In this document: one piece after another, positions 19,717-51,125 of the stretch
Position numbering within the stretch: position 1 is the first letter of the stretch
Layout of the letters: each line of letters begins with the position of its first letter
Source: Candidatus Binatia bacterium
Lineage (GTDB): Bacteria > Desulfobacterota > Binatia > UBA12015
Direction: 5' to 3'
Assembly (NCBI GenBank): GCA_029243485.1
Contig: JAQWRY010000088.1
Span: forward strand, 27,221-91,220
DNA length: 64,000 nt
Notes under the pieces: model-generated
The model's database searches: none
What the model was told of the DNA's origin: nothing
The model's input: the letters and a program-made list of their open reading frames with translations, nothing else
Program-made: the position numbers and the translations under genes

Positions 19717-21354
19717 ATGGAATTCAATTTCGCTGACGTTCACGAGACGATTGCCGCTTCCATTCCCGACCGCGAGGCCTTCGTCTTCCGCGACCGTCGG
19801 TTCACGCATGCCCAATTCGCGGCCCGGACCCGGCGTCTCGCCAACTACCTTCTGAGCCGAGGCCTGACGGTCCACACGGAGCGGAGAGAGTTGGCCGGGC
19901 ACGAGTCGGGTCAGGATCACGTCGCGCTCTATCTCTACAACGGCAACGAGTACCTCGAGGGGATGCTCGCGTCGTGGAAGGCGCGGCTGGCGTCGTTCAA
20001 CGTCAACTATCGGTACGTCGAAGAGGAGCTTCTCTATCTCTTCGAGAACTCGCAGGCGCGCGCGGTGATCTATCACGCCGAGTTCGCGCCGCAGATCGCC
20101 GCCATCCGCGAGAAGCTCCCGAGGTTGGAGGTTCTGATTCAGGTCTCCGACGACTCTGGGAACGGGCTGCTTCCGGGCGCCGTCGACTACGAGGAGGCGC
20201 TTGCCGGTTCGTCGGACGGGAAGCCGGATGTCACGCCCTCCGGCGACGACCTCTATCTCCTCTACACCGGCGGGACCACGGGAATGCCGAAGGGCGTTTT
20301 GTGGCGTTCGGCCGACATCTTCATCGCCGCGATGGGCGGCCGAAAGCCCGACGGCGTGATCCTCGCGTCCTACGAGGAACTCGCGGAGCAGGTGAAGGCG
20401 ATGGAAGGGATGCGGGGCCTCGTCGGTCCGCCGTTCATGCACGGTGCGGCGCAGTGGTCGAGCATGATCATGATGACCCTGGGGGCCTGTTTGGTTGTAC
20501 CCGACATTGTGAAGAAGCTGGACCCGGACGACTTTCTAACCAAGATCGGCGAAGAGAAGATCACCAGCATCACGATGGTGGGAGACGCCTTCGCGCGGCC
20601 GTTGCTCGATCAACTCGAGAAGAAGACGTACGACCTTTCCACCCTCTTCGTTCTGGGTTCCGGGGGCGCACCTCTTTCCACCAAGAACAAAGAGGCGCTC
20701 CTCGAGAAGATTCCGCACGGGATGATCTTCGATGGGATCGGGTCGTCCGAGACCGGCGCGCAGGCGACCAACACCTCCACGAAGGCCACCGGCGCGACGA
20801 CCGGCAAGTTCCAGCCCGGGCCCGGCGCCGGCGTCCTGTCCGAGGACCTCTCTCGAGTGCTCGAGCCGGGGAGTGAGGATATGGGTTGGTTTGCGCAGAG
20901 CGGCCGGGTCCCTCTCGGCTACTTCGGCGATCCGGAGAAGACTGCGCGCACCTTCCCGGTCGTGGACGGCGCGCGCTACTCGGTTCCGGGAGATAGGGCG
21001 AGGCACAAGGACGACGGTACGATCGAGGTGCTCGGTCGCGACTCGGTGACCATCAATTCCGGGGGAGAGAAGATCTTTGCCGAGGAGGTGGAGCAGGCGT
21101 TGAAGCAGCATCCGGATGTGTACGACACCGTCGTGACCGGCCGCGCCAGCGACCGTTGGGGGCAGGAGGTCGTAGCCGTCGTTCAGCTTCGAGCGGACGC
21201 GAAAACGGGTGCGGCGGAGCTTCTCGAAGAAGCCGCGAAACACATCGCGCGGTACAAGCTCCCGAAGTCGTTCGTCTTCCGGCCGAGTATCGTGCGGAGC
21301 CCGAGCGGCAAGGCCGACTATCGGTGGGCCAAAGAGCAGGCCGCGCAGAGTTGA
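19717..21354 (+). CDS. acyl-CoA synthetase (FadD3-like)
   Basis: N-terminus MEFNFADVHE…, AMP motif YTGGTTGMPKGV, C-terminal SGKADYRW. Confidence 0.85.
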   Translation: MEFNFADVHETIAASIPDREAFVFRDRRFTHAQFAARTRRLANYLLSRGLTVHTERRELAGHESGQDHVALYLYNGNEYLEGMLASWKARLASFNVNYRYVEEELLYLFENSQARAVIYHAEFAPQIAAIREKLPRLEVLIQVSDDSGNGLLPGAVDYEEALAGSSDGKPDVTPSGDDLYLLYTGGTTGMPKGVLWRSADIFIAAMGGRKPDGVILASYEELAEQVKAMEGMRGLVGPPFMHGAAQWSSMIMMTLGACLVVPDIVKKLDPDDFLTKIGEEKITSITMVGDAFARPLLDQLEKKTYDLSTLFVLGSGGAPLSTKNKEALLEKIPHGMIFDGIGSSETGAQATNTSTKATGATTGKFQPGPGAGVLSEDLSRVLEPGSEDMGWFAQSGRVPLGYFGDPEKTARTFPVVDGARYSVPGDRARHKDDGTIEVLGRDSVTINSGGEKIFAEEVEQALKQHPDVYDTVVTGRASDRWGQEVVAVVQLRADAKTGAAELLEEAAKHIARYKLPKSFVFRPSIVRSPSGKADYRWAKEQAAQS

Positions 21355-21361
21355 GCTGACG

Positions 21362-22564
21362 ATGACTCTTCCGGATTGGGGGCGCGCCGAGCCGTACGAG
21401 AACGTCTCGGGAGAGATCGGGATCGTCGGTGTAGGCGAGGCGGCCTACAGCAAGGCATCGGGTAGAACGAGCCGGGAGATCGCAGGGGATGCGGTCGCGC
21501 GTGCCCTCGAGGACGCGGGCCTCGAGCCGGGCGACGTCGACGGCATCACGCTCAGTCTCCTCGACACCGATTTCGACGCTGACGCGTTCCGAGAGCACTT
21601 CGGCACCTCCCAGGAGATCTGGGTGTCGCACTGCGGCGGCGGAATGACGTGGGCCGCCACCGCCGCCTACGATGCGGCCCTCGCCATTCGGCGGGGAGAT
21701 GCGAAGACCGTGGTGAACGTTTTCTCGGTGGATTGGGCGAGCAAGCGGGGCGAGATGGTCGGGGGCCCGGGGAAATTCCACGCCGAAGAGCTCTTCAAGC
21801 AGAACGTGGAGGTGCCGTTCGGCTGGTTCCCCCAACCGGTCTATTTCGCCTCGATCGCCCGGCGACACATGGCGGAGTTCGGCACGACCCAGGAGCAGCT
21901 CGGAGCCATCGCCGTCGCGTGCCGCCGCCATGCGAATCTGTCGACGAACGCAGTCATGCGCGAGAAGCCGCTCACGCTTGAGAAGTACCTCGCGAGCCCG
22001 CCGATCGCGGATCCGTTTCGGAAGGAAGACTGCTGTCTCATTTCCGATGGCGGCGCCGCCTACGTGATGACTTCGATCGAGCGCGCTCGAGACCTGCGCC
22101 GGCCACTCGTCGAGGTCGCAGGCGTAGGCCTCGGGACTTCGAAGACCGGTCGGTACTGGGCGCAGCAGCCGGACTTCACCGCGACGCCGCAGGTGTTCTC
22201 CGCGCCCACCGCGTTCGGAATGGCCGGACTCTCGCCGGCTGATGTCGATGTCCTGACTTGTTACGATCCGTTCACGATTGTCTCGCTCATGCAGATCGAG
22301 GACATGGGGTTCTGTTCGAAGGGGGAGGGAGGGCCATTCGTCGAAGGTCAGGCGCTGCACTTCGACGGCGGGAAGCTGCCGTACAACACCCACGGCGGAT
22401 TGCTCTCCCACGCGTACGTTCTCGGGATCGCCCACGTCGTCGAGGTCGTTCGGCAGCTCCGCGGGGAGTCGTCCGCGCAGGTGCCCGATGCTCGCGTCGG
22501 GATCTACGGCGGCTATACCGGCCCCCAGGCGTCGACCCTGATCCTGCGAACGGGAGATTCGTGA
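21362..22564 (+). CDS. SCP2-type thiolase-like protein (Ltp/aldolase-like, lipid-transfer protein family)
   Basis: 400 aa from MTLPDW. Thiolase fold with the GIVGVGEAAYSK N-terminus. Starts 8 nt after the ligase stop. Confidence 0.75.
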   Translation: MTLPDWGRAEPYENVSGEIGIVGVGEAAYSKASGRTSREIAGDAVARALEDAGLEPGDVDGITLSLLDTDFDADAFREHFGTSQEIWVSHCGGGMTWAATAAYDAALAIRRGDAKTVVNVFSVDWASKRGEMVGGPGKFHAEELFKQNVEVPFGWFPQPVYFASIARRHMAEFGTTQEQLGAIAVACRRHANLSTNAVMREKPLTLEKYLASPPIADPFRKEDCCLISDGGAAYVMTSIERARDLRRPLVEVAGVGLGTSKTGRYWAQQPDFTATPQVFSAPTAFGMAGLSPADVDVLTCYDPFTIVSLMQIEDMGFCSKGEGGPFVEGQALHFDGGKLPYNTHGGLLSHAYVLGIAHVVEVVRQLRGESSAQVPDARVGIYGGYTGPQASTLILRTGDS

Positions 22565-22995
22565 TGCGTGAGGGATTCCCTCTGCCCGATGTCGACTGGG
22601 AGCCGACCCGCGAGTTCTGGGCGGCCGCCGCACGCGAGGAACTCCGTATGCCGCGTTGCACGGCATGTCGCAGGTTCCACTGGTACCCGCAGGGCGCTTG
22701 CTCCCATTGTGGCGAAGAGTCGGTCGCGTGGGAGCGCATGAGTGGCTGCGCGCGCCTCTTTACTTGGGTCGTGCTCGAGCATGCCTTCCTGCCTCAGTAC
22801 GCCGGCAACCTGCCGTTCGTCAGTGCCCTGGTGACCCTCGACGAAGATGAGCGGGTTCGGCTCCCGACCCGCATCGTCGAGTGTGAGCCGGCGACGCTCG
22901 CGATCGACCAGCCGATGGAGGTCTGTTTCCGGACGCTTCGCTTCGATGGGGTGGAGGGAGAGGTCTTGGCGCCGTTCTTTCGTCCTGTCGGCTGA
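22564..22995 (+). CDS. DUF35 OB-fold/zinc-ribbon protein, partner of the SCP2-thiolase
   Basis: 143 aa. Zn-ribbon CTACRRFHWYPQGACSHC followed by an OB-fold. The start overlaps the thiolase stop (TGATG). Confidence 0.75.
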   Translation: MREGFPLPDVDWEPTREFWAAAAREELRMPRCTACRRFHWYPQGACSHCGEESVAWERMSGCARLFTWVVLEHAFLPQYAGNLPFVSALVTLDEDERVRLPTRIVECEPATLAIDQPMEVCFRTLRFDGVEGEVLAPFFRPVG

Positions 22996-23051
22996 TAGAT
23001 TGTTGCCTGAGGCGGGAGAAACGGGGAAAACTAGCTTGCTTGGCGCATGTA

Positions 23052-23070
23052 AATGGGAATAATTCCCATT
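23052..23070. promoter_or_regulatory. AT-rich perfect palindrome AATGGGAAT-A-ATTCCCATT upstream of 23105
   Basis: 9-bp inverted arms around a single central base, 35 bp upstream of the ATG, in DNA that is otherwise very GC-rich. Confidence 0.45.
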
Positions 23071-23104
23071 CACGAATCGACCCAGCATTCGGAGAAGAAC
23101 CCGT

Positions 23105-24307
23105 ATGAGCTTGTTGAAAATTGGAACCGGCGCCGGCGTCGTGGGGCTCGCGATTGCCACCGTCGTCGGTCTCGTACAGGCGCAGGATGTCCGTGAGTCT
23201 GGGTTGCAGATCACGGCGGATGAGAAGCGGACGCTCCTCAGCAAAGACGTGGGTACCGAGCGCTGGGCGATCACGCGCAACGCCGACGACATGTCGGTGA
23301 CCGGGAATGTGTTCTTCCCGTCTGGCGGCGATCCGCTGTTCGTTTTCTGTGAGCAGACCGGCACCGCAGGCAGCGATCTCCTTCTGGACTGCTTTGGTGC
23401 GGACGTCTGCGCGGGAGCCCCGTGCGGTGGCGATCAGTGGTCAGCGCTCGCGGCGGTCACGCTGCCCGAGGCGTTCTTTCTGCCGACGCCGGCATCGACG
23501 GTTGAGCTCAGCGAGGTGTTTGCTGCGGTCGCCGCGGCCGCGCAAGAGGCGGTCGAGTCTCGAGCCGGCGGCGTTCGCCAGTCGGGGCTTCAGGTGACGC
23601 CTGACGGTAGGCGTACGGTTCTCAGTAAGGACGTTGGGACGGAGCGCTGGGCTATCACGCGCAATGCAGACGACAACTCGGTGACCGGCAACGTCTTCTT
23701 CCCGTCCGGCGGCGATCCGCTCTTCGTGTTCTGTAACCAAACGGGAACTTCGGGGGAGGACCTCCTCCTCGAGTGTTTTGGCGCGGATGTCTGTCTGGCT
23801 GCGCCGTGCCCGGGCGATCAGTGGTCATTCCTGGCTGACGTGACGTTGCCGGAGTCGTTCTTCCTGCCCGACGGCACCACGCCTTCGCCGACGCCCGCGC
23901 CGACGCCCGCGCCTACGAACGGCCCGCTACCCACGGCGACGCCCGCACCGACGCCGAGCGACGGCGGGGTCTGCGGCAACGGCATCGTCGAAGGCGCCGA
24001 GGAGTGCGACGGCGTTGATCTCAACGGGGAGTCGTGCGACGGCCTCGTCTCGATTTTCGAGAACTGCACCTCCGGCGCCCTGGCTTGCAACTCGGACTGC
24101 ACCTACGATGCCACATCGTGCGTGTGTCCCTGCGTGGAGGATTTCGATTGCTTCTACGAGATCGATTGCGACGAGGCGGGCGACTTCTGCGGGTTCATCG
24201 AGGCGTGTGACGGCAGCAAGTGCATCACGACGCGGATCGGGTCGTCCGAGGTCTGTAATGGCTTCGATCCGGGGGACCCCGACCCGGACTTCCTCCGCTG
24301 CGACTAG
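23105..24307 (+). CDS. secreted protein: tandem duplicated ~100-aa domain, Pro/Thr linker, Myxococcus-type Cys-rich repeat module
   Basis: Signal peptide. Two repeats each carry SGLQ(I/V)T…TERWAITRNADD…GNVFFPSGGDPLFVFC…DQWS…TLPE(A/S)FFLP. A PTPAPTPAPT linker follows. The C-terminus has CGNGIVEGAEECDGVDLNGESCD and 16 more Cys. Confidence 0.75.
   Translation: MSLLKIGTGAGVVGLAIATVVGLVQAQDVRESGLQITADEKRTLLSKDVGTERWAITRNADDMSVTGNVFFPSGGDPLFVFCEQTGTAGSDLLLDCFGADVCAGAPCGGDQWSALAAVTLPEAFFLPTPASTVELSEVFAAVAAAAQEAVESRAGGVRQSGLQVTPDGRRTVLSKDVGTERWAITRNADDNSVTGNVFFPSGGDPLFVFCNQTGTSGEDLLLECFGADVCLAAPCPGDQWSFLADVTLPESFFLPDGTTPSPTPAPTPAPTNGPLPTATPAPTPSDGGVCGNGIVEGAEECDGVDLNGESCDGLVSIFENCTSGALACNSDCTYDATSCVCPCVEDFDCFYEIDCDEAGDFCGFIEACDGSKCITTRIGSSEVCNGFDPGDPDPDFLRCD
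23190..23870 (+). repeat. intragenic tandem duplication (two ~300-bp units, diverged mostly at synonymous sites)
   Basis: DNA units at ~23200-23500 and ~23570-23870 align throughout and encode near-identical protein repeats. Confidence 0.7.
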
Positions 24308-24372
24308 GCTCGGCTTGGGATCGGGCGCCCCCCGGGATCGACGGGGGGCGCCACATCCCATACGAATCGGGC

Positions 24373-25290
24373 ATGGCTGCCGAATTCACAGAGGAATCCG
24401 TCCCCGACCAAGGAGAACGCACGGCCTTCGTCACGGGAGCCAACAGCGGGATCGGTTTCGAAGCCGCACGGGTTCTCGCCGGCCGCGGCGCGCGGGTCCT
24501 GATCGGCTGTCGGTCGCCGGGACGTGCGGCCGGAGCGCGGGACCGGATTCTGTCCGCGCACCCGAGCGCCGACGTCGAAATCGTCGAACTCGATCTGGCG
24601 AGCCTCGCGTCCGTACGTGAGGCCGCGGAGCGCGTAAGCGAGGAGCCGCGTCTCGATCTTTTGATCAACAACGCGGGGATCATGATCCCGCCGCGTGAGG
24701 AGACGAGCGACGGGTTCGAGTCTCAGTTCGGCGTGAATCATCTCGGGCACTTTGCACTGACGGGGTTGTTGCTCGACAAGGTGCGGAGCACGGCAGGCTC
24801 GCGGATCGTCTCAGTGAGCAGCAACGCACACAAGGGTGGGGCGATCGACTTCGACGACCTCCAGGCGGAGAAGTCGTACAGCAGGGTCGGCCGCTACAAC
24901 ATGAGCAAGCTCGCGAACCTGCTCTTCATCTTCGAGTTGCAGCGGCGGCTCGAGGCGGCGGGAGGGAAGACGATCGCGGTGGCGTGTCATCCGGGCGTCT
25001 CGGATACCGAACTGAAGCGCTACATTCCGAGCTGGGTCATGTTGTTTTCTCCAATCATGAACCTGATGTCGCACGATCCGCCGGAGGCGGCCCTCCCGAC
25101 GTTGCGGGCGGCGACCGATCCGGCCGCGGAAGGCGGACAGTACTTCGGGCCCTCGAACTTCTTCGAGTTCTACGGCCCGCCGATTCTCGTCGATCCGATC
25201 GCGGCGAGCCGCGACGAAGAGACCGCGCGTCGCCTGTGGGACGTCTCGATTGAGCTGACGGGCGTGGATCCCGGGCTCGCCGCCGGCTGA
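24373..25290 (+). CDS. SDR oxidoreductase (retinol dehydrogenase/WWOX-like classical SDR)
   Basis: TGANSGIGFE, NNAG, S…YxxSK. Confidence 0.85.
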   Translation: MAAEFTEESVPDQGERTAFVTGANSGIGFEAARVLAGRGARVLIGCRSPGRAAGARDRILSAHPSADVEIVELDLASLASVREAAERVSEEPRLDLLINNAGIMIPPREETSDGFESQFGVNHLGHFALTGLLLDKVRSTAGSRIVSVSSNAHKGGAIDFDDLQAEKSYSRVGRYNMSKLANLLFIFELQRRLEAAGGKTIAVACHPGVSDTELKRYIPSWVMLFSPIMNLMSHDPPEAALPTLRAATDPAAEGGQYFGPSNFFEFYGPPILVDPIAASRDEETARRLWDVSIELTGVDPGLAAG

Positions 25291-25305
25291 CCACGCTCCG
25301 AACGT

Positions 25306-26784
25306 TCAGTCGGCGAAGCCGAGGAGCAGGCCGTCCTTAAGCCGGGCCCGACGTCCGCAACTTTCGCGTTCCAGCACCTCGCCGAGGAGGGCCGGGTCCT
25401 CCGACTTGGCCCATGTGCGTCGCCCGTCGTCGAGCAGGCACGCGAAGCCGGCTTTCGAGGGCGCAGCGTCGTCGTACCGTAGTACGTACGTCTCGACGGT
25501 GGCCTCGCCCTCGTGGCCCGACACCGACTCTCTGTGCGGCAGCTTCTCGGCCTCGGCATCGAGGTCCGCGTACTGAAAGCCCGACGGTGCCGGCTCAGTC
25601 GAGTAGATGCCGAAGGCGTGCTTGGAGAAGGCGCCGCCGACGGAACTCACGAAGCCGAGGCTGCCCGGATCCCCGCGCAGGCGTTCCATCATCGTCGCGA
25701 TGGAGTGCAGCACGTAGCTGTTGAGCGGCGCACCGGCGTACGCAAGCCCGCCCGTCACGGTGAGGGGATCATCGAGTGAGAATCCGAGGGTTTCGGCGGC
25801 AACCTGCACTGCCGCCGGGAAGCAGCTGTAGAGATCCACGTGCGCAAAGTCGGCCGGCTCATGCCCGGACAGTTGGAGAGCGCGCTTGCCGGCAAGCTCG
25901 AGTGCCGGAACGCCCCGGAAGTCCATTCGGTGGGAGAGCAGAGGCGTCTCCATGCAGTCGGTCGCGGTTTGCAGGAAGACCCAGCGATCCCGAGGGACGC
26001 CGAGACGTTCGGCCAGCTCGGCCGAGCAGACGATCACCGCGGCGCCGAGGTCGACGACCATGTTGGCGCAGAGACGCTTCGTATATGGATACGAGATCAT
26101 CCGGTTGTCGGTGGTCTCGTCCCGGATCGTCTCGATGCTCGGCGCCTCGCGAGTCCAGGCGCACGGATTGGTTTCGGCCACGCGGGCGAAGCCATGCCAG
26201 AGTCGCGCGATGCGGTCGCGGTTGTCCTCGAGGCTCTCGCCGCGCGCCTGTCGCATCGCGTTCTCGTAGAGGGTGAAGATCGCGGCGGGTTGGCCGATTC
26301 CCGCGTCGAACTCGTCGCGGGTCATGCCGGGATCGTCTTTGCCGAAGTTGCGGTCCGGTTCCGGGGCCTCCGGTTGGGTCCACGCGAGCTCCTGCCCGGC
26401 CTTTTTCGCCTGTCGCTTGCTTCGCTCGGCTTCCGCGCCGACGACGAGGACCGCGTCGCGGACCCCCGCCGCGATATCGCGCGCGCCGTCGCTGATCATC
26501 CTCTGCACCATGTTCCCACTGATTGGGGACAAGGCGGTTTCGGCGCCGGGCGCGCCCAGGCGCTCCCGAAGAGCGTGGCCCGGGTTCGTATAGGGCCACA
26601 GGCCCTTCGGCACCCGAATCGAGTCGAGGTGGGTGAGGAGGGCACGGCAGCGTGCGTCGGCGGCCGCGCGCCGAGCCGCCTGCTCCATGAGTCCTAGGGG
26701 GTCGAGGGATCCTTCGTGGGATTCGTTGCGTTGTAGGATCTGGCCGGCTCCGACGAGGATCGGTGCCCGCGGATCAATCGACAT
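25306..26784 (-). CDS. thiolase-fold protein lacking the nucleophilic Cys (non-canonical ~490-aa thiolase-like family)
   Basis: 492 aa from MSIDPRAP. Thiolase-like N and C domains are present, but the position of the NRxCxSG Cys reads LSPISGNMVQ. Its ATG shares a base with the GST stop (TGATG). Confidence 0.6.
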   Translation of the reverse strand: MSIDPRAPILVGAGQILQRNESHEGSLDPLGLMEQAARRAAADARCRALLTHLDSIRVPKGLWPYTNPGHALRERLGAPGAETALSPISGNMVQRMISDGARDIAAGVRDAVLVVGAEAERSKRQAKKAGQELAWTQPEAPEPDRNFGKDDPGMTRDEFDAGIGQPAAIFTLYENAMRQARGESLEDNRDRIARLWHGFARVAETNPCAWTREAPSIETIRDETTDNRMISYPYTKRLCANMVVDLGAAVIVCSAELAERLGVPRDRWVFLQTATDCMETPLLSHRMDFRGVPALELAGKRALQLSGHEPADFAHVDLYSCFPAAVQVAAETLGFSLDDPLTVTGGLAYAGAPLNSYVLHSIATMMERLRGDPGSLGFVSSVGGAFSKHAFGIYSTEPAPSGFQYADLDAEAEKLPHRESVSGHEGEATVETYVLRYDDAAPSKAGFACLLDDGRRTWAKSEDPALLGEVLERESCGRRARLKDGLLLGFAD

Positions 26785-27812
26785 CAGGCGAACAGGGCTT
26801 CGCAGCCCGTTCCGGCGAGAATCGCATCCACCTTGGCGCGGTCGTCCGCCGACAGCGCGGCGTGGTGTTCGCGGAGCCACCGGAGGCACTTGGCCTGGTA
26901 GGGGAAGGGCTTCTGGGTCCAGGGGAGATCTTCGATCGTGGTCTCGACGCGCTCGGCGCCCTTCTGGATCGCTTCGGCATTTGCGAGGAGGAACGGGGTG
27001 TACACGCGGCCGACCTCGCAGAGCAGCGCCTTGATAGTCTCGGGTACGGCGTCGCTCTTGATCCAGTCGTCTTCGGTCGGCTCGAGCCCGGACAGTTCTT
27101 CGGCGCCCTCGACCCACGCGTAAACGCGCGGTGCCTCGGCGAGGGCAATCGCCGCGGGGGTGGGGTCGAACAGGACCAGACACGTGAGCTGCCCGAGGAA
27201 CGCGAAGTCACTCGACCCGGGGCGGTTCCCCATGAGGAACGGCTGCGTCTGCAGGTGTGCGTCGAACAACTTCAGGATCCGTTTGTAGCTTCCCTCGATC
27301 ACCGGTGCGGTGGTGTCGTTCGAGCCGACGACCCAGAGCCGATCGATCTGGCGCTTTGCGATGAAGTCGCAGAACGGCTTCACGTCTTCGTCGCTGACGT
27401 TGACCTGTCGCCAGAGCGGCAGGATCGAGGCCGCCTTGTCGACGTCCGCCTGGTAGTACCAGCGGTAGTGGAACATCGGCTTCGTGAGCCACTCGTCGGC
27501 GAAGTCCTCGAGGAGGGCATCGAGGAAGCCGATCACCGGATCGGTGGGGACGGCGTTGCGTCCCGCGAACTCTTTCTCGAAGCGCCGAATGAGCGGCGTC
27601 GAGTCGGTGACGGCGACCTCGTTCCCGGATTCATCGGGAAGGTAGAACGTCGGCAGGAGCTCGACCTTGGGCTTGGGGCGAGCGGCGTGCTGGGGTCCAC
27701 CCTGCTGGATCATCCGATACGGGATGTGCCGGTAGCGCATGAGCGCTCTCATCTTGCGGGTGTACGGAGAGCCGGGTGCGCCCATCATCCAAAGCGGGGT
27801 CGGGATCGTCAT
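26784..27812 (-). CDS. glutathione S-transferase-like protein
   Basis: N-terminal thioredoxin-like MMGAPGSPYTRKMRALMRYRHIPY and a C-terminal helical GST domain. Confidence 0.65.
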   Translation of the reverse strand: MTIPTPLWMMGAPGSPYTRKMRALMRYRHIPYRMIQQGGPQHAARPKPKVELLPTFYLPDESGNEVAVTDSTPLIRRFEKEFAGRNAVPTDPVIGFLDALLEDFADEWLTKPMFHYRWYYQADVDKAASILPLWRQVNVSDEDVKPFCDFIAKRQIDRLWVVGSNDTTAPVIEGSYKRILKLFDAHLQTQPFLMGNRPGSSDFAFLGQLTCLVLFDPTPAAIALAEAPRVYAWVEGAEELSGLEPTEDDWIKSDAVPETIKALLCEVGRVYTPFLLANAEAIQKGAERVETTIEDLPWTQKPFPYQAKCLRWLREHHAALSADDRAKVDAILAGTGCEALFA

Positions 27813-27877
27813 GGGGCTGGATCATGGCCTATTGGCATGTCGCATGCCAGTAGAAGGTAGCCGGGCCGAACCGGGGC

Positions 27878-28726
27878 TCACGAGTAGCCGAGGCGGGGCG
27901 GGCGACCGCTGGTGGGGGTGGGGGGTAAGTCGTTGCTCCGGCGGGGCCACACGATGGGGGACACGTCGCCGGCGATTGGTTGGCCGACCTCAATTTTTTG
28001 GCGATCGGGCACGATGTGGGGGACCGCAGACCGGCGCAGGCAGCCGTCGGCGAAGTAGATCACGCAGTAGACCCTTCGCGTGCTGGTGTCCGTGTTGGGT
28101 TCGGCGAAGTGCACGGTGAGGGAGTGGTGGAACACGACCGAGCCCGGATCGACCTCGACCCACACGGGTTCGATGTCGGCGATCGCTGGGTCGTTCAGGA
28201 TGTCGTACGGCTCCTGGAACAGGTGTGAGATGTCGCAGAAGCGCTCGAGGCCGGCGCGGTGTGAGCCGGGGACGTAGGCCATCGCACCTCGACCGCGACG
28301 CGAGCCGTCGAACGGAATCCACGCGGTCACCTGATTAGCGGGCTCGATCGGCCAGAAGGGACGATCCTGGTGGGCGTCCGTCTCGCGACCACCACCTTCC
28401 TTGTAAAGCGCTTGGTCGTGCCAGATTCGGACGGCGTCGGCGTCCAAGAGGCGCGTTGCCATCTCGCCGATGCGGGCGTCGAACGTGAGCGGTCGGACGT
28501 CGACGTTGTCCTCCCACAGGTTGATGCACTGGATGAAGCTCTGCTCGTAGATCGTCTTCTCGTCGAGCGAGCGAGTGTCGACCGATGCGCGTCCCGCCAC
28601 GGCGGCGTCGACGGCTGTGCCGAACGTCGCTCGCTCGGCTTCGGAGAACACGTCGTCGACGACGAGGAAGCCATCGCGGCGGAACGTCTCGATCTGTTCG
28701 TCGGTCAGGATTGCCGGAGTGCTCAC
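27878..28726 (-). CDS. phytanoyl-CoA dioxygenase (PhyH) family Fe(II)/2-oxoglutarate oxygenase
   Basis: WHQD…H facial-triad region and the overall PhyH pattern. Confidence 0.8.
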   Translation of the reverse strand: MSTPAILTDEQIETFRRDGFLVVDDVFSEAERATFGTAVDAAVAGRASVDTRSLDEKTIYEQSFIQCINLWEDNVDVRPLTFDARIGEMATRLLDADAVRIWHDQALYKEGGGRETDAHQDRPFWPIEPANQVTAWIPFDGSRRGRGAMAYVPGSHRAGLERFCDISHLFQEPYDILNDPAIADIEPVWVEVDPGSVVFHHSLTVHFAEPNTDTSTRRVYCVIYFADGCLRRSAVPHIVPDRQKIEVGQPIAGDVSPIVWPRRSNDLPPTPTSGRPPRLGYS

Positions 28727-47539: not shown

Positions 47540-48271
47540 ATGGGTGATTCGCGCGCAGCGCTCGTCATTGGTGCGGGTCCTGGTCTCGGCGCGTCGATTT
47601 GTCGCCGTTTCGGCCGCGAGGGGTTCACGATCTGTGGGGTCCGTCGTCGCCACGCCGATGAGCTCGACGATCTGTGCCGAGAGATCGGAGATGCGGGCGG
47701 CGAGGCGCACGGCTTCACGACCGACATGCGCAACGAAGAAGAGGTCGTCGCGCTCTTCGACAAAATCGAAAAGGACATCGGCCCCCTCAGGGTCGTCGTG
47801 TTCAACCCCGGGGCGAACGTCAGCTTCTCGATCGAGGAGACGACCACGCGCGTGTTCACGAAGGTCTGGGAGATGGCCTGCTTCGCGGGCTTCCTCGTCG
47901 GCCGCGAGGCCGCGCGTCGCATGTTGCCGCGCGCCGAAGGGACGATTCTCTTCACCGGAGCGACCGCGAGTGTGCGCGGCGGCGCCGGCTTCTCCGCCTT
48001 TGCCAGCGCGAAAGCGGGGCTCCGTTCCGTCGCGCAGAGCATGGCGCGTGAACTCGGCCCGAAGGGGATCCACGTCGGACACGTCGTGATCGACGGGGGG
48101 ATCGACGGTGCTTTCATTCGCGAGATGATGGGCGACCGACTGAAGGAGATGCCGCCGGACGCGATCCTCGATCCGGAAGATATCGCGGAGACCTATTGGG
48201 CTCTGCACGCACAGCGGCGCAGCGCGTGGACGTTCGAGGCGGACGTTCGACCGTGGACCGAGCGCTGGTGA
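47540..48271 (+). CDS. SDR oxidoreductase
   Basis: IGAGPGLGAS…NPGAN…S…FASAKAG. Confidence 0.8.
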   Translation: MGDSRAALVIGAGPGLGASICRRFGREGFTICGVRRRHADELDDLCREIGDAGGEAHGFTTDMRNEEEVVALFDKIEKDIGPLRVVVFNPGANVSFSIEETTTRVFTKVWEMACFAGFLVGREAARRMLPRAEGTILFTGATASVRGGAGFSAFASAKAGLRSVAQSMARELGPKGIHVGHVVIDGGIDGAFIREMMGDRLKEMPPDAILDPEDIAETYWALHAQRRSAWTFEADVRPWTERW

Positions 48272-48272
48272 T

Positions 48273-48650
48273 TGACTAGCTCCGCATCGGTGAGGTCGCC
48301 AAGCGGGCCGGGGCCGCGTCGTCCGCGATACGCTACTACGAGATCGAAGGTCTGATTTCGCGACCGGCGCTACGCGGTGGGAGACGGATCTACGACGAGG
48401 GTGTCGTCTCTCGCCTTGCGCTGATTGATCTCGCAAAAGCGCGGGGTTCACGGTGGCGGAAGTGAAGCTTCTGCGCGGCGACTTCAGGGGCCGGGCCTCG
48501 ACCGGTGAGCGCTCGCGGACGAGAAGGTCGGCGAACTCGATCGCCCCATCGAAGAGGCGGAGCAGATGAAGCGTGTTCTGAAGGTCATGATGAGTTGCGA
48601 ATGCCCGCCGTTCGAGGACTGCTCCCGGGCGATCGGGGTGTGTGATTGAC
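48273..48650 (+). pseudogene. MerR-family transcriptional regulator, start lost and at least 2 frameshifts
   Basis: HTH LRIGEVAKRAGAASSAIRYYEIEGLISRPALRGGRRIYDEGVVSRLALIDLAKARG stops after …RWRK*. The expected …GFTVAEVKLL… requires +1 nt at ~48447. A C-terminal coiled coil and Cys cluster (…ELDRPIEEAEQMKRVLKVMMSCECPPFEDC…) lie in a third frame. A TAG sits immediately 5' of the HTH. Confidence 0.45.
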
Positions 48651-48695
48651 CGGCTTTTGCGTTCCGGGCACGGTCGTGGGAACACGATCCCGGCC

Positions 48696-51125
48696 ATGCA
48701 TCCCATTCGATTGATCCCCATCGCCTTGATTCTCCTGACACTTCTCTCGCCGGGCTCCGCAGCCGGACAGGTAGAGGCTCCGTCCGATCTCCAAAAGTCG
48801 CTCGACACGGGTGTCGAGACGGTGGGGGAGGAGGACGAGGTCGATGCCGGCGCGGCGCAGGCCGAGGCGGCGGAGCGCGGTGACCCGACACCTGGGCTGG
48901 ACCGGGGGGCGCGGCAGCGAATCGAGGAGATCGTGGTGAGCGCACGGAAGCGTGCAGAGCTGCTCGAGGATACTCCGGTGGCCGTCACCGTCCTCGGCGA
49001 GACCGCGCTGCGCCAGTCCGGGATCACGCGGATCGATCAGATTCAGGATCTAGTGCCGAACATGACGTTCGCCCAGGGGCTCGCTGGGCAGGCACCGCAG
49101 ATTCGCATTCGCGGGGTCGGGACCACGACCGTCGAGGTGGCGTTCGATCCCGGCGTCGGGGTGTACGTGGACGGAGTTTTCCTTGCCCGCGCGGTGGGGC
49201 AGCTGCTCGACACCGTCGATATCGAGCAGGTGGAAGTGTTGCGAGGTCCGCAGGGGACCCTCTTCGGGAAGAACACCGTCGGCGGAGCGGTGAGTGTGAC
49301 GACCGTGAAGCCGAAGCCCGAGCTCGAGGGCTTCGTGTTCGTGCGCCCGGGCAACTTCGGGTCCGTCATGACGCGCGCGATGGTGAATCTGCCGGTCTAC
49401 GAAGACAAGGTGATGACACGCTTCGCACTCTCGTCGAGGAACAGCGCCGGTTACGTCTACAATCAGTATCGTGACGAGTACATGTCCGGGCTCAGCTCGA
49501 TCGACACGCTGGGCTCTATCCGTCTCGCGCTGATCGATGATCTCACGATCGACGTGAGCGGCCAGTACTCGACCGCGCACACCAACGCACGGGGTGGGGA
49601 GTGTGTCTTCTCGGCCCCGGGTGCTCTCGAGGGCCTCGTTCCCGGCTTCAAGCCGGGGTGCGAGGCAGTGTCGGGACCCTTCCTCACGAACGAAGCCGTC
49701 GCGCAGATCAACAGTGTAACGAGCAGTGGCACCTGGGGTGTCATCGAGTACGCACCGGGCGGCTTCGCTTTTCTCGACGACCTGCTTGTGAAATCGATCT
49801 CGTCGTGGCGCCAGCAGGCGTCGGCACAGCGCTTCGATCTGGACGGCAGTTCCTACCCGGCGATTCAGCTCTCGAATGCCGGCGGAGGAGCGTTGTTCGA
49901 TGGCGAGCCGACCGAGCAAGAGCAGGTCCAGCAGGAACTGCAGTTCAACGCGTCTGCTTGGGACGGCCGAATCAACTTTATCACGGGCCTCTTTGCTTAC
50001 TGGGAGAACGCCACCGCGCCGAACACCGTGCGGGCCGAGACCGCGACGTTCGTGACCGCGACGGCCAATCGGATCACGACCGACAATTTCACGTGGGCGC
50101 TGTACGGGCAGGGGACGGCGGACGTCACGGACTGGCTCTCGCTCACGGCCGGCCTCCGGTACACCGCGGACCGAAAATCGTTCACGCAGGAGGCCTATGA
50201 CCCTCGCGCGCCCGACGTGCCGCCGGAGATGGGCGCGGATTCCAACACGTTCACGTCGTGGACGCCCGCGGCGACGCTGGCGCTGCTGACCCCGCAGGAG
50301 TGGCTCGACGGAACTCCGGTCGATCACCTGATGGGCTACTTCACGTACTCGCGGGGCTTCAAGGGCGGAGGGTTCAACGCCGTTCTGCAATCTCAGGTCG
50401 GTTCGTTGAGCCCGGTACCGTTCGACCCGGAGACGCTCGACAACTTCGAACTCGGTGTGAAGACGACCGCACTGGAGCAGCGTCTCACGCTCAACTTGGC
50501 GGTCTTCCGCGGGAAGTATGACGACATTCAGGTCTCGCAGTTCGTGACCTCGCTGGATGATCAGGGAATGGTCGTTTCGCAGCGCGTGACGCAGAACGCG
50601 GCGAAGGCGACGATCCAGGGGTTCGAGGCGGAGGCTTGGGTGCAGCCGATCGACGGACTCGTCTTCACGGGGTCGTTCGGCTACCTCGACGCGCGCTACG
50701 ACGAGTACTCCGGCTCGGAGTCGCAGATGACGTCCGCGCCTATCGATCGGGCCGGCGAGACCTTCGATCAGTCGCCGCAGCTTCAGTCGTTCGTGTCCGC
50801 CCAGTATTCCTTCGGGATCGACATCGCCGCGGACTCGCTGCTCAACGGATGGCTCACGCCACGGCTCGAGTGGGCGTACCGCGATCGGTTCCACACGGTG
50901 GCGCCGGAGGTCCGGCAGGGCTTTCAGGCGGGATACAACCTCCTGAACGCGCGGCTCTCGTACGACTTCCTAGACGACCGCGCGCAGGTCGCCGTGTGGG
51001 CGAAGAACTTGCTCGACGAGGCGTACTTCAACCAGACGTTCGCCTACGTGACGACGTTTGGGGGCGTCTCGCGGTTCTATGAGCCGCCTCTGACGTTCGG
51101 CGGCGAGCTCAGCTACGTTTTCTAG
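48696..51125 (+). CDS. TonB-dependent outer-membrane receptor
   Basis: Signal peptide, TonB box and plug (IEEIVVSARKRAELLEDTPVAVTVL), a long barrel, and a C-terminal …GGELSYVF. Confidence 0.9.
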   Translation: MHPIRLIPIALILLTLLSPGSAAGQVEAPSDLQKSLDTGVETVGEEDEVDAGAAQAEAAERGDPTPGLDRGARQRIEEIVVSARKRAELLEDTPVAVTVLGETALRQSGITRIDQIQDLVPNMTFAQGLAGQAPQIRIRGVGTTTVEVAFDPGVGVYVDGVFLARAVGQLLDTVDIEQVEVLRGPQGTLFGKNTVGGAVSVTTVKPKPELEGFVFVRPGNFGSVMTRAMVNLPVYEDKVMTRFALSSRNSAGYVYNQYRDEYMSGLSSIDTLGSIRLALIDDLTIDVSGQYSTAHTNARGGECVFSAPGALEGLVPGFKPGCEAVSGPFLTNEAVAQINSVTSSGTWGVIEYAPGGFAFLDDLLVKSISSWRQQASAQRFDLDGSSYPAIQLSNAGGGALFDGEPTEQEQVQQELQFNASAWDGRINFITGLFAYWENATAPNTVRAETATFVTATANRITTDNFTWALYGQGTADVTDWLSLTAGLRYTADRKSFTQEAYDPRAPDVPPEMGADSNTFTSWTPAATLALLTPQEWLDGTPVDHLMGYFTYSRGFKGGGFNAVLQSQVGSLSPVPFDPETLDNFELGVKTTALEQRLTLNLAVFRGKYDDIQVSQFVTSLDDQGMVVSQRVTQNAAKATIQGFEAEAWVQPIDGLVFTGSFGYLDARYDEYSGSESQMTSAPIDRAGETFDQSPQLQSFVSAQYSFGIDIAADSLLNGWLTPRLEWAYRDRFHTVAPEVRQGFQAGYNLLNARLSYDFLDDRAQVAVWAKNLLDEAYFNQTFAYVTTFGGVSRFYEPPLTFGGELSYVF

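Follow-up and report, generated by a model that had tools for sequence, protein, structure and literature searches.

The 64-kb window analysed here (64,000 nucleotides (nt) of a Candidatus Binatia genome) contains, at 23105..24307 of the + strand with the stop codon included, a gene for a 400-aa protein predicted to be secreted, and ahead of it, at 23052..23070, a perfect 9-1-9 palindrome, AATGGGAAT-A-ATTCCCATT, which we consider a candidate operator of the Fur family (Zur-type), based on its sequence, on orthologous loci and on copies elsewhere. The coding sequence (CDS) follows the list of open reading frames (ORFs), and an identical protein (P0001; P and L numbers denote homologous proteins and loci outside the window) is annotated as 'hypothetical protein' on a 458-kb contig of a Candidatus Binatia metagenome-assembled genome (MAG). 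Just 3' of the upstream stop codon there is a promoter-like block (23003..23032, + strand: TTGCCT at 23003-23008, 18 nt, AAAACT at 23027-23032), which would drive the gene, and the ribosome-binding site (RBS) GGAGAA (23091..23096, + strand, ATG 8 nt downstream) belongs to an AGGAG-like block kept in orthologous leaders. Beyond the stop codon, a GC-rich stem-loop, GGCGCCCCCC-N9-GGGGGGCGCC (24324..24352, + strand), is terminator-like with no U tract; the 76-nt segment containing it has a minimum free energy of -45.3 kcal/mol (z -4.7), and the terminator scan did not call it an intrinsic terminator because the T run is missing. The region is best explained as a gene complete in itself, with a promoter-like block, operator, RBS, CDS and 3' stem-loop.

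The initial annotation of this DNA had described a perfect 9+1+9 palindrome, an AT island in GC-rich DNA, situated 35 bp upstream of the gene. The palindrome is exact, and no 100-nt stretch of the region has a lower GC content than the one that holds it (0.49 vs about 0.65 in the surroundings); it ends 34 nt ahead of the ATG at 23105, so its upstream position holds and the figure for the distance does not, while all other coordinates were right. Its 7-1-7 core, TGGGAAT-A-ATTCCCA, occupies 23054-23068. The window has no second copy of the palindrome, and none arose in 100 dinucleotide-preserving shuffles. A leader element of the form TTGC-N~21-CCAWAGTG, directly 3' of the upstream stop codon, is kept (TTGC and a CCAWAGTG-type second element) in 8 of 8 orthologous leaders, palindrome present or not. 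The palindrome lies 20 nt past the conserved -10-like element and 20 nt ahead of the RBS, which would place it between the -10 region and the RBS. Sigma-54, extracytoplasmic function (ECF) -35/-10 and second sigma-70 promoters spanning the box were considered by eye and dropped due to poorly fitting spacing and hexamers, and none of them was called by the scan.

The three closest orthologous loci (L041, L045 and L046) carry TGGGAA-N3-TTCCCA at the same place. The box reads TGGGAATATTTCCCA in L041 (86% protein identity) and is identical in L045 (68%), while L046 (67%) has TGGGAAGTTTTCCCA; in all four loci, the window included, it lies 34-49 nt 5' of the ATG, and 12/12 arm positions are invariant compared with 19/76 other leader columns. 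The proposal that the palindrome looks like an operator for a dimeric regulator thus gains from arms that are invariant in four orthologous loci while the leader around them diverges, and can be refined to the Fur family (Zur-type) with the evidence given below. It could be argued that such a palindrome is only the functionless remnant of a small palindromic insertion (a block of about 45-60 nt), conserved merely because divergence has been short, and indeed the block, an indel, is lacking in L042, L047, L049 and L050, and the window has a single copy. However, protein identity is already down to 67-86% in these four loci, invariance is complete in the arms and limited to 25% of the columns in the rest of the leader, and no repeat family was found in the window or the loci, and we regard a decaying insertion as very improbable.

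A palindrome in a 5' leader could also act at the RNA level, as a stem-loop (UGGGAA-NNN-UUCCCA with flanking pairs) that affects stability or translation or is bound by a protein. If the TTGC...CAWAGT block is the promoter, the palindrome would be transcribed at roughly +12 to +31, and extended hairpins can be folded in all four loci (-12.6, -18.3, -13.7 and -21.3 kcal/mol; z -2.3, -3.2, -1.3 and -4.5), with a 3-nt 'loop' that varies (TAA, TAT, TAT, GTT) over a fixed stem, and one G-C to U-A pair change in the outer stem common to L041 and L046. On the other hand, RNAalifold yields only 6 core pairs and no covariation, the outer stems are non-homologous across the four loci (the shared one being degraded in the window), there is no Rfam match, and an RNA element leaves the identical sequences at metal-uptake promoters of other phyla unexplained. 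Since the 12 arm bases are strictly invariant with no compensatory change, sequence-specific recognition is favoured over pairing alone, and we consider the RNA stem-loop unlikely.

Sequences identical to the palindrome occur in other genomes. GTDB genomes were scanned for exact AATGGGAATNATTCCCATT and the genes flanking the matches were read, which gave 40 loci, none from Binatia, and therefore no regulon for this lineage. Eleven of the 40 matches come from loci with a GC content of 59% or more, in which a chance origin of an AT-rich 18-mer is essentially never expected, and 15 of the 40 lie directly 5' of metal-related genes. These are genes for cluster A-I Zn/Mn ABC binding proteins in Ilumatobacteraceae, Bifidobacterium, Pseudarthrobacter and probably Nakamurella (L001, L020, L038 and L007, the last assigned by motif only, with no family match); operons in which a binding-protein gene comes after a Fur-family gene in Saccharibacteria-type genomes (L002, L013 and L014, with the Fur-family gene detected in the first two and not in L014); divergent Fur-family and binding-protein genes in two Peptoniphilus genomes (L010, L024); TonB-dependent receptor genes in Burkholderia, Duganella, a gammaproteobacterium and Ca. 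Eutrophovita (L019, L028, L033, L034); a gene for a NikA/CntA-type binding protein that passes the curated cutoff in Sutterella (L018); and a gene for a FecI-like ECF sigma factor (L012). It had been suggested earlier to check if a regulator gene lies near other copies of the palindrome, and Fur-family genes do so at L002, L013, L010 and L024. Because identical copies stand at promoters of Zn/Mn/Fe uptake and Fur-family genes, the box was assigned to the Fur family, and judged by its sequence it is most likely a Fur-family box, with Zur-type as the best guess. The Gram-positive and candidate phyla radiation (CPR) contexts indicate Zur, while for the proteobacterial contexts Fur is equally possible.

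Several other exact matches are coding coincidences, in which the 19-mer reads NGN(D/N/H/Y)SH, MG(I/M)IPI or WE(S/L)FP(F/L) according to the frame and the base at the centre. The 19-mer is present three times in the bin AM-2014-D4_bin-189 (L023:6054-6072, L035:3153-3171, L036:9-27) with near-identical flanks, and twice in Leptospira alexanderi (L017:3320-3338, L039:4572-4590), again with near-identical flanks and adjoining a small helix-turn-helix (HTH)-like gene; these copies look like a repeated or mobile element and not like metal operators. Four loci from gut Lachnospiraceae, Bacteroides and unclassified MAGs (L005:1673, L009:6073, L027:1190, L029:4765) have the palindrome and the same flanks in common, with the palindrome about 100 nt 5' of a conserved aldo/keto-reductase-like gene (MQTV[KR]LGKT[EG]IVTNKNAFGALPIQRISDEEAV...), which suggests a horizontally shared locus using the site in its own way. 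Two Solirubrobacterales genomes of 70% GC (L011:5757-5775, L022:2535-2553) contain the palindrome some 340-360 nt from the start of a conserved amidohydrolase-like gene (MLVDMHAHVIPG...), inside its coding sequence, and the site is kept between both genomes. In a Hyphomicrobium MAG, the exact palindrome lies about 57 nt 5' of a gene (L015:4568-5674, - strand) for a 369-aa secreted beta-propeller protein with only weak TolB/PQQ-propeller matches; a Binatia protein, P0073, also joins the tandem pair described below to a propeller, and it is known that periplasmic propeller zinc chaperones exist (AztD).

The genes around the locus form a conserved block. In the window (19717-22995 and 24373-28726) and in L042-L050, the gene of the secreted protein is flanked by cytoplasmic genes of lipid or steroid-side-chain type, namely those for an AMP-binding ligase, a Thiolase_C_1 protein with a ChsH2-type zinc-ribbon/OB protein, an SDR, a TLP1-type thiolase-like protein, GST_N_3 and PhyH, and a secreted-protein gene on the same strand amid them is odd, yet stable within the clade. 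Eight orthologous loci (58-86% protein identity) share the same block of Thiolase_C_1, ChsH2-type OB protein, secreted-protein gene and SDR, beyond which their flanks differ and contain no conserved regulator gene. This block gives some room for another dimeric regulator, e.g., of the IclR or TetR type, which would tie the palindrome to the neighbouring lipid/steroid-side-chain-like catabolic genes, given that the gene stays within the Thiolase_C_1/ChsH2-OB/SDR block in all 8 loci, and that the E. coli IclR box, TGGAAATNATTTCCA, is likewise a 7-1-7 site, which differs from the box of the window by one base per half. However, no regulator is conserved beside the block (a LysR gene is found in L046, a PadR gene in L049 and none in the window), the box lies 3' of the upstream operon and so can control only the secreted-protein gene, distant homologues of the protein are in unrelated contexts, and the exact copies elsewhere are at metal uptake genes, not at catabolic ones. 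We consider such a regulator quite unlikely, and neither it nor a decaying insertion explains the metal-gene contexts or the strict invariance of the arms.

A functional link of the secreted protein to its thiolase, ChsH2 and SDR neighbours was also considered and dropped, since more distant homologues are in unrelated neighbourhoods, and nothing was therefore read into the lipid-type genes. Homologues with the same architecture at 45-47% identity are among those with unrelated neighbourhoods. The genes of two proteins with the same architecture, P0016 and P0018 (L077:1-3082 and L078:38-2263), are 3' of Methyltransf_33, DinB_2 and FGE-sulfatase genes (ergothioneine-type EgtD/EgtB) and an SDR gene, a context wholly unlike that of the window, and the gene of a stand-alone pair is downstream of thaumatin-domain and GH3 genes. 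Elsewhere in the window, at 48262-48650 (+), there is a MerR-type HTH frame (LRIGEVAKRAGAASSAIRYYEIEGL..., ending ...MSCECPPFEDCSRAIGVCD) split over three frames by two apparent frameshifts, which may be either a pseudogene or the product of MAG assembly errors. It stands directly 5' of an ORF at 48594-51122 (+) that weakly resembles TonB-dependent receptors (phmmer E 6e-7), and no Fur-type box was found ahead of that ORF.

As for the protein itself, it starts with a probable signal peptide read by eye, MSLLKIGTGAGVVGLAIATVVGLVQA (aa 1-26; 23105..23182, + strand), with a basic n-region (K5), a hydrophobic stretch at 8-24, small residues at -3/-1 and a probable cleavage after VQA (VQA|QD); it is kept in orthologues and appears as a low-pLDDT (predicted local distance difference test) helix in the structural model. 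Two all-beta repeat units follow, bounded by hidden Markov model (HMM) domain limits, by the model and by invariant columns: unit 1 (aa 29-128; 23189..23488, + strand) with the invariant Cys 82, 96, 102 and 107, and unit 2 (aa 157-256; 23573..23872, + strand) with the invariant Cys 210, 224, 230 and 235. Between them is an Ala-rich helical linker (aa 129-156; 23489..23572, + strand; model helix 130-151, pLDDT 65-76) of variable length among homologues. A Pro/Thr-rich low-complexity linker, taken from the sequence and with pLDDT below 50 (aa 257-289; 23873..23971, + strand), then leads to the CGNG-type Cys module (aa 290-339; 23972..24121, + strand), in which CGNGIVEGAEECDGVDLNGESC begins at aa 290 and 6 of its 7 Cys align with the invariant Cys of the module family; this is the order, PT linker and then CGNG module, that the initial annotation had read. 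The acidic C-terminal tail (aa 340-400; 24122..24304, + strand; pLDDT 60-80) has 9 Cys (CPC...DCxxxIDC...) and no family match in Pfam or NCBIfam, and it is found only in the full-length orthologues P0002-P0020, most of which have 24 Cys in total.

The AlphaFold2 model, built with an alignment of 84 sequences, gives seven strands and pLDDT above 90 for each of the two units, which are joined by the helical Ala-rich linker, and 60-80 for the Cys-rich tail. Of the 24 Cys of the 400-aa protein, each repeat has 4 and the last 111 residues have 16. The protein has no His and is very acidic (isoelectric point (pI) about 4), and the closest eight, P0001-P0008, are similar, with 0-1 His and pI 4.0-4.3. 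The four invariant Cys are present in 234 of 238 units, and His is nearly never present in the units. Since the Cys count of this exported protein is even and conserved, the Cys probably form disulfides, about 12 in all.

The two units had been described as repeats of ~100 aa with ~80% protein identity that diverged at synonymous positions, a pattern taken to indicate an old duplication under selection and not an assembly artefact, and all of this could be reproduced. Between aa 25-127 and aa 153-255, 83 of 103 residues are identical (80.6%) with 73.5% nt identity, which by codon position is 86%, 88% and 46%, and 41 of the 83 identical residues are encoded by different codons. The Nei-Gojobori estimates between unit 1 and unit 2 are about 1.6 for synonymous (dS) and about 0.15 for nonsynonymous (dN) divergence, with dN/dS about 0.09. 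Exactly two units are present in 118 of the 120 best homologues, and when the closest unit was sought for each of 114 units from 57 non-redundant proteins, it was the same position elsewhere for 87, the own partner for 16 and the other position elsewhere for 11. As the units group by position across proteins, the duplication predates the radiation of the family, and the sequence comparison confirms the tandem pair as a fixed module kept by purifying selection, not an assembly artefact.

The initial annotation did not recognise the repeated domain, and our searches agree with this. The whole protein has no match in Pfam and NCBIfam at E<=1, 27 diverse repeat units gave nothing below E 0.02 against Pfam, and the unit profile had 0 matches at E<=10 against PDB sequences; a FlgB match to the protein was rejected as far under threshold (30.8 bits vs a cutoff of 158). 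A profile search of 1.84 billion representative proteins found 2318 clusters (50% identity) at E<=1e-3 and 330 at 1e-30, counts which mix both domain types, as the search profile spans the CGNG module too. Nearly all source names of the homologues are Binatia or unclassified MAGs. The ~100-residue, 4-Cys all-beta domain forms a family without annotation, of which Binatia have many members.

In the homologue set, the tandem pair occurs in at least six architectures. It stands after a signal peptide in the window protein, alone in a 237-aa protein (P0078, P0085), at the extreme C-terminus of S8 subtilases (P0014, P0060, P0116), ahead of Kazal inhibitor domains in a protein that is otherwise orthologue-like (P0011), ahead of a PQQ/BamB-type propeller (P0073), after TSP3 repeats (P0040) and after an N-terminal extension that by eye resembles a lamin-tail domain (P0023). 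Because the pair is reused with S8 proteases, Kazal domains, propellers, TSP3 repeats and a lamin-tail-like domain as well as alone, these architectures suggest that it most probably serves for binding or anchoring outside the cell, so that different effector domains are localised. P0011 (366 aa, from a Candidatus Binatia MAG) has the same signal peptide and pair, with units 73% and 66% identical to those of the window protein, and carries two Kazal-type serine protease inhibitor domains where the window protein has the CGNG module and the Cys-rich tail. As S8 proteases are frequent in the family, the pair may bring proteases and inhibitors to the same place.

The CGNG module has a consensus of ~48 residues, CGNG-x5-E-x-CDG-x-x-L-x-G-x-x-C...G-x-L-x-C-x3-C-x-x-D-x-S-x-C, and forms long arrays in other metagenomic proteins; the module of the window aligns with 23 modules from other proteins. 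It had been called a Myxococcus-type module, which applies to its first 18 residues, as these match DUF4215, and not to the second half, which differs. Even at E<=10, no Pfam or NCBIfam HMM matches the last 116 aa or the equivalent regions of three orthologues or relatives, and the single copy of the window does not reach the family threshold for PF13948 or TIGR02232. Large CGNG arrays accumulate weak DUF4215 scores, and the array in L074 closes with a canonical DUF4215 repeat (E 9e-14), while its other modules give weak and partial DUF4215 scores. When the 24-module alignment was compared with this canonical repeat of L074 by hhalign, the probability was 87.6% over the first 18 columns only. 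As the match ends after column 18, the module is, on sequence grounds, a marginal relative of the Myxococcus-type repeat, with the opening half in common, and by the family model it is a non-member and not part of DUF4215.

To hypothesize on the basis of these results, under metal sufficiency a metal-loaded Fur-family (Zur-type) dimer would sit on 23052-23070 and block transcription from the promoter just upstream, and under zinc (possibly iron) limitation the regulator would be released, the gene expressed and the protein secreted. The exported product would fold with about 12 disulfides, and its tandem beta pair could act as a binding or anchoring module for the Cys-rich acidic C-terminal part, i.e., the CGNG module and the 9-Cys tail. 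We give this joint model of Zur-type repression, expression in metal starvation and an exported, anchored Cys-rich protein about an even chance. For its regulatory half we draw on identical sites in other phyla and on the conservation seen in four loci, and for its functional half domain architecture is the one source. The layout of the gene, the protein family, the old age of the duplication, the conserved box arms and the settings of identical boxes in other genomes are shown by the data; we infer the identity of the regulator in Binatia, the sensed metal, the position of the promoter and the biochemical role. To go further and see in this protein the first member of a metal-starvation-induced extracellular system in Binatia, in which the tandem beta domain and the Cys-rich tail capture or deliver metal (a protein 'zincophore') or remodel the cell surface in times of zinc or iron scarcity, is a speculation that we hold to be rather improbable.

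Several observations weigh against the proposed regulation and function. The central AAT-N-ATT is imperfect in L041, L045 and L046, with 1-2 mismatches; in orthologues at 58-64% identity the whole ~45-60 nt box block is missing, and the palindrome is absent from more distant homologues, as it is from 25 loci of distant relatives (family paralogues and CGNG-module proteins). A metagenome search for close orthologues returned only relatives at 32-53% identity and CGNG-module proteins, none with the box. As the box is limited to one subclade, the regulation, if real, would be clade-specific. Relaxed scans found no second box in the 64-kb window, and, in about 200 kb of Binatia-type loci, no box beyond L041 and L045, which are orthologous loci. 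A search of the surroundings of the locus for genes of the Fur family, for ZnuA-like genes and for other zinc genes gave none, and phmmer and hmmsearch found no Fur-family ORF in the window or the Binatia loci. The consensus scan of the leader called no sigma-70 promoter. With no His and an even, conserved Cys count, no zinc-handling signature is apparent in the protein, and for the binding role of the pair there is domain architecture alone. Finally, the contexts of TonB-dependent receptors and the FecI-like factor fit Fur and iron as well as Zur and zinc.

Two leads seem worth following. The paired ~100-residue 4-Cys domain, with hundreds of clusters at 50% identity, mostly from the uncultured phylum Binatia and described in no database, is a clear candidate for a new database entry and for structural and ligand work, because proteases, protease inhibitors and propellers that are secreted bear it. 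At least four phyla seem to make use of TGGGAAT-N-ATTCCCA as a variant of the Fur-family box, and if Zur or Fur does bind the Binatia copy, an uncharacterised secreted protein would be tied to metal starvation, which gives a condition for seeking its function. Neither the domain family nor the box variant upsets current understanding, and both are ordinary in kind.

The palindrome can be compared with published Zur boxes. Zur boxes are 9-1-9 or 7-1-7 palindromes, and a typical Zur regulon includes znuABC, TonB-dependent receptors and cnt operons (PMC6103462). The Zur boxes of Mycobacterium avium are AATGAAAATNATTTTCATT-like, including TGGGAATCATTTTCA and TGAAAATGATTCCCA, and the MAP Zur boxes are listed with TGGGAAT and ATTCCCA half-sites (PMC4298942). 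A literature search for the half-site strings gave only unrelated primer matches. The palindrome of the window is like these boxes in its 9-1-9/7-1-7 inverted repeat, AAT-N-ATT centre and TG...CA ends, and in its position just 5' of the start codon and near the putative -10 region; 14 of 18 non-central positions equal the mycobacterial Zur consensus, with GG where the mycobacterial box has AA at half-site positions 3-4. Unlike in known Zur or Fur regulons, its target is a secreted protein outside the recognised members, and the element would be a fresh instance of an operator class that is well known, with half-sites that perhaps make it a variant of its own.

For the protein, the nearest relatives of the CGNG module are DUF4215 (PF13948) and the Myxococcus cysteine-rich repeat (TIGR02232), whose CGxG-x5-E-x-CD opening motif is present as CGNGIVEGAEECDG. 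The opening CGNG-x5-EECD-x-x-L is common to the module and DUF4215, whereas the second half of the module is G-x-x-C...G-x-L-x-C-x3-C-x-x-D-x-S-x-C and not GDGC...C. For the repeat unit, the FAIM N-terminal domain (PDB 3mx7) and small up-and-down beta barrels or sandwiches (avidin-like, TbpB lobes, designed barrels) are among the nearest known systems. Secreted bacterial subtilases bear C-terminal accessory modules, such as PPC (pre-peptidase C-terminal) domains and CBM-type binding modules, and the repeat is like them in being small, beta-rich, often tandem, carried by S8 proteases as well as by further secreted proteins, and used again in different architectures. It differs from them in that it has no sequence match to such Pfam families and is always in exactly two copies, and in that the pair also occurs N-terminally and as a stand-alone protein.

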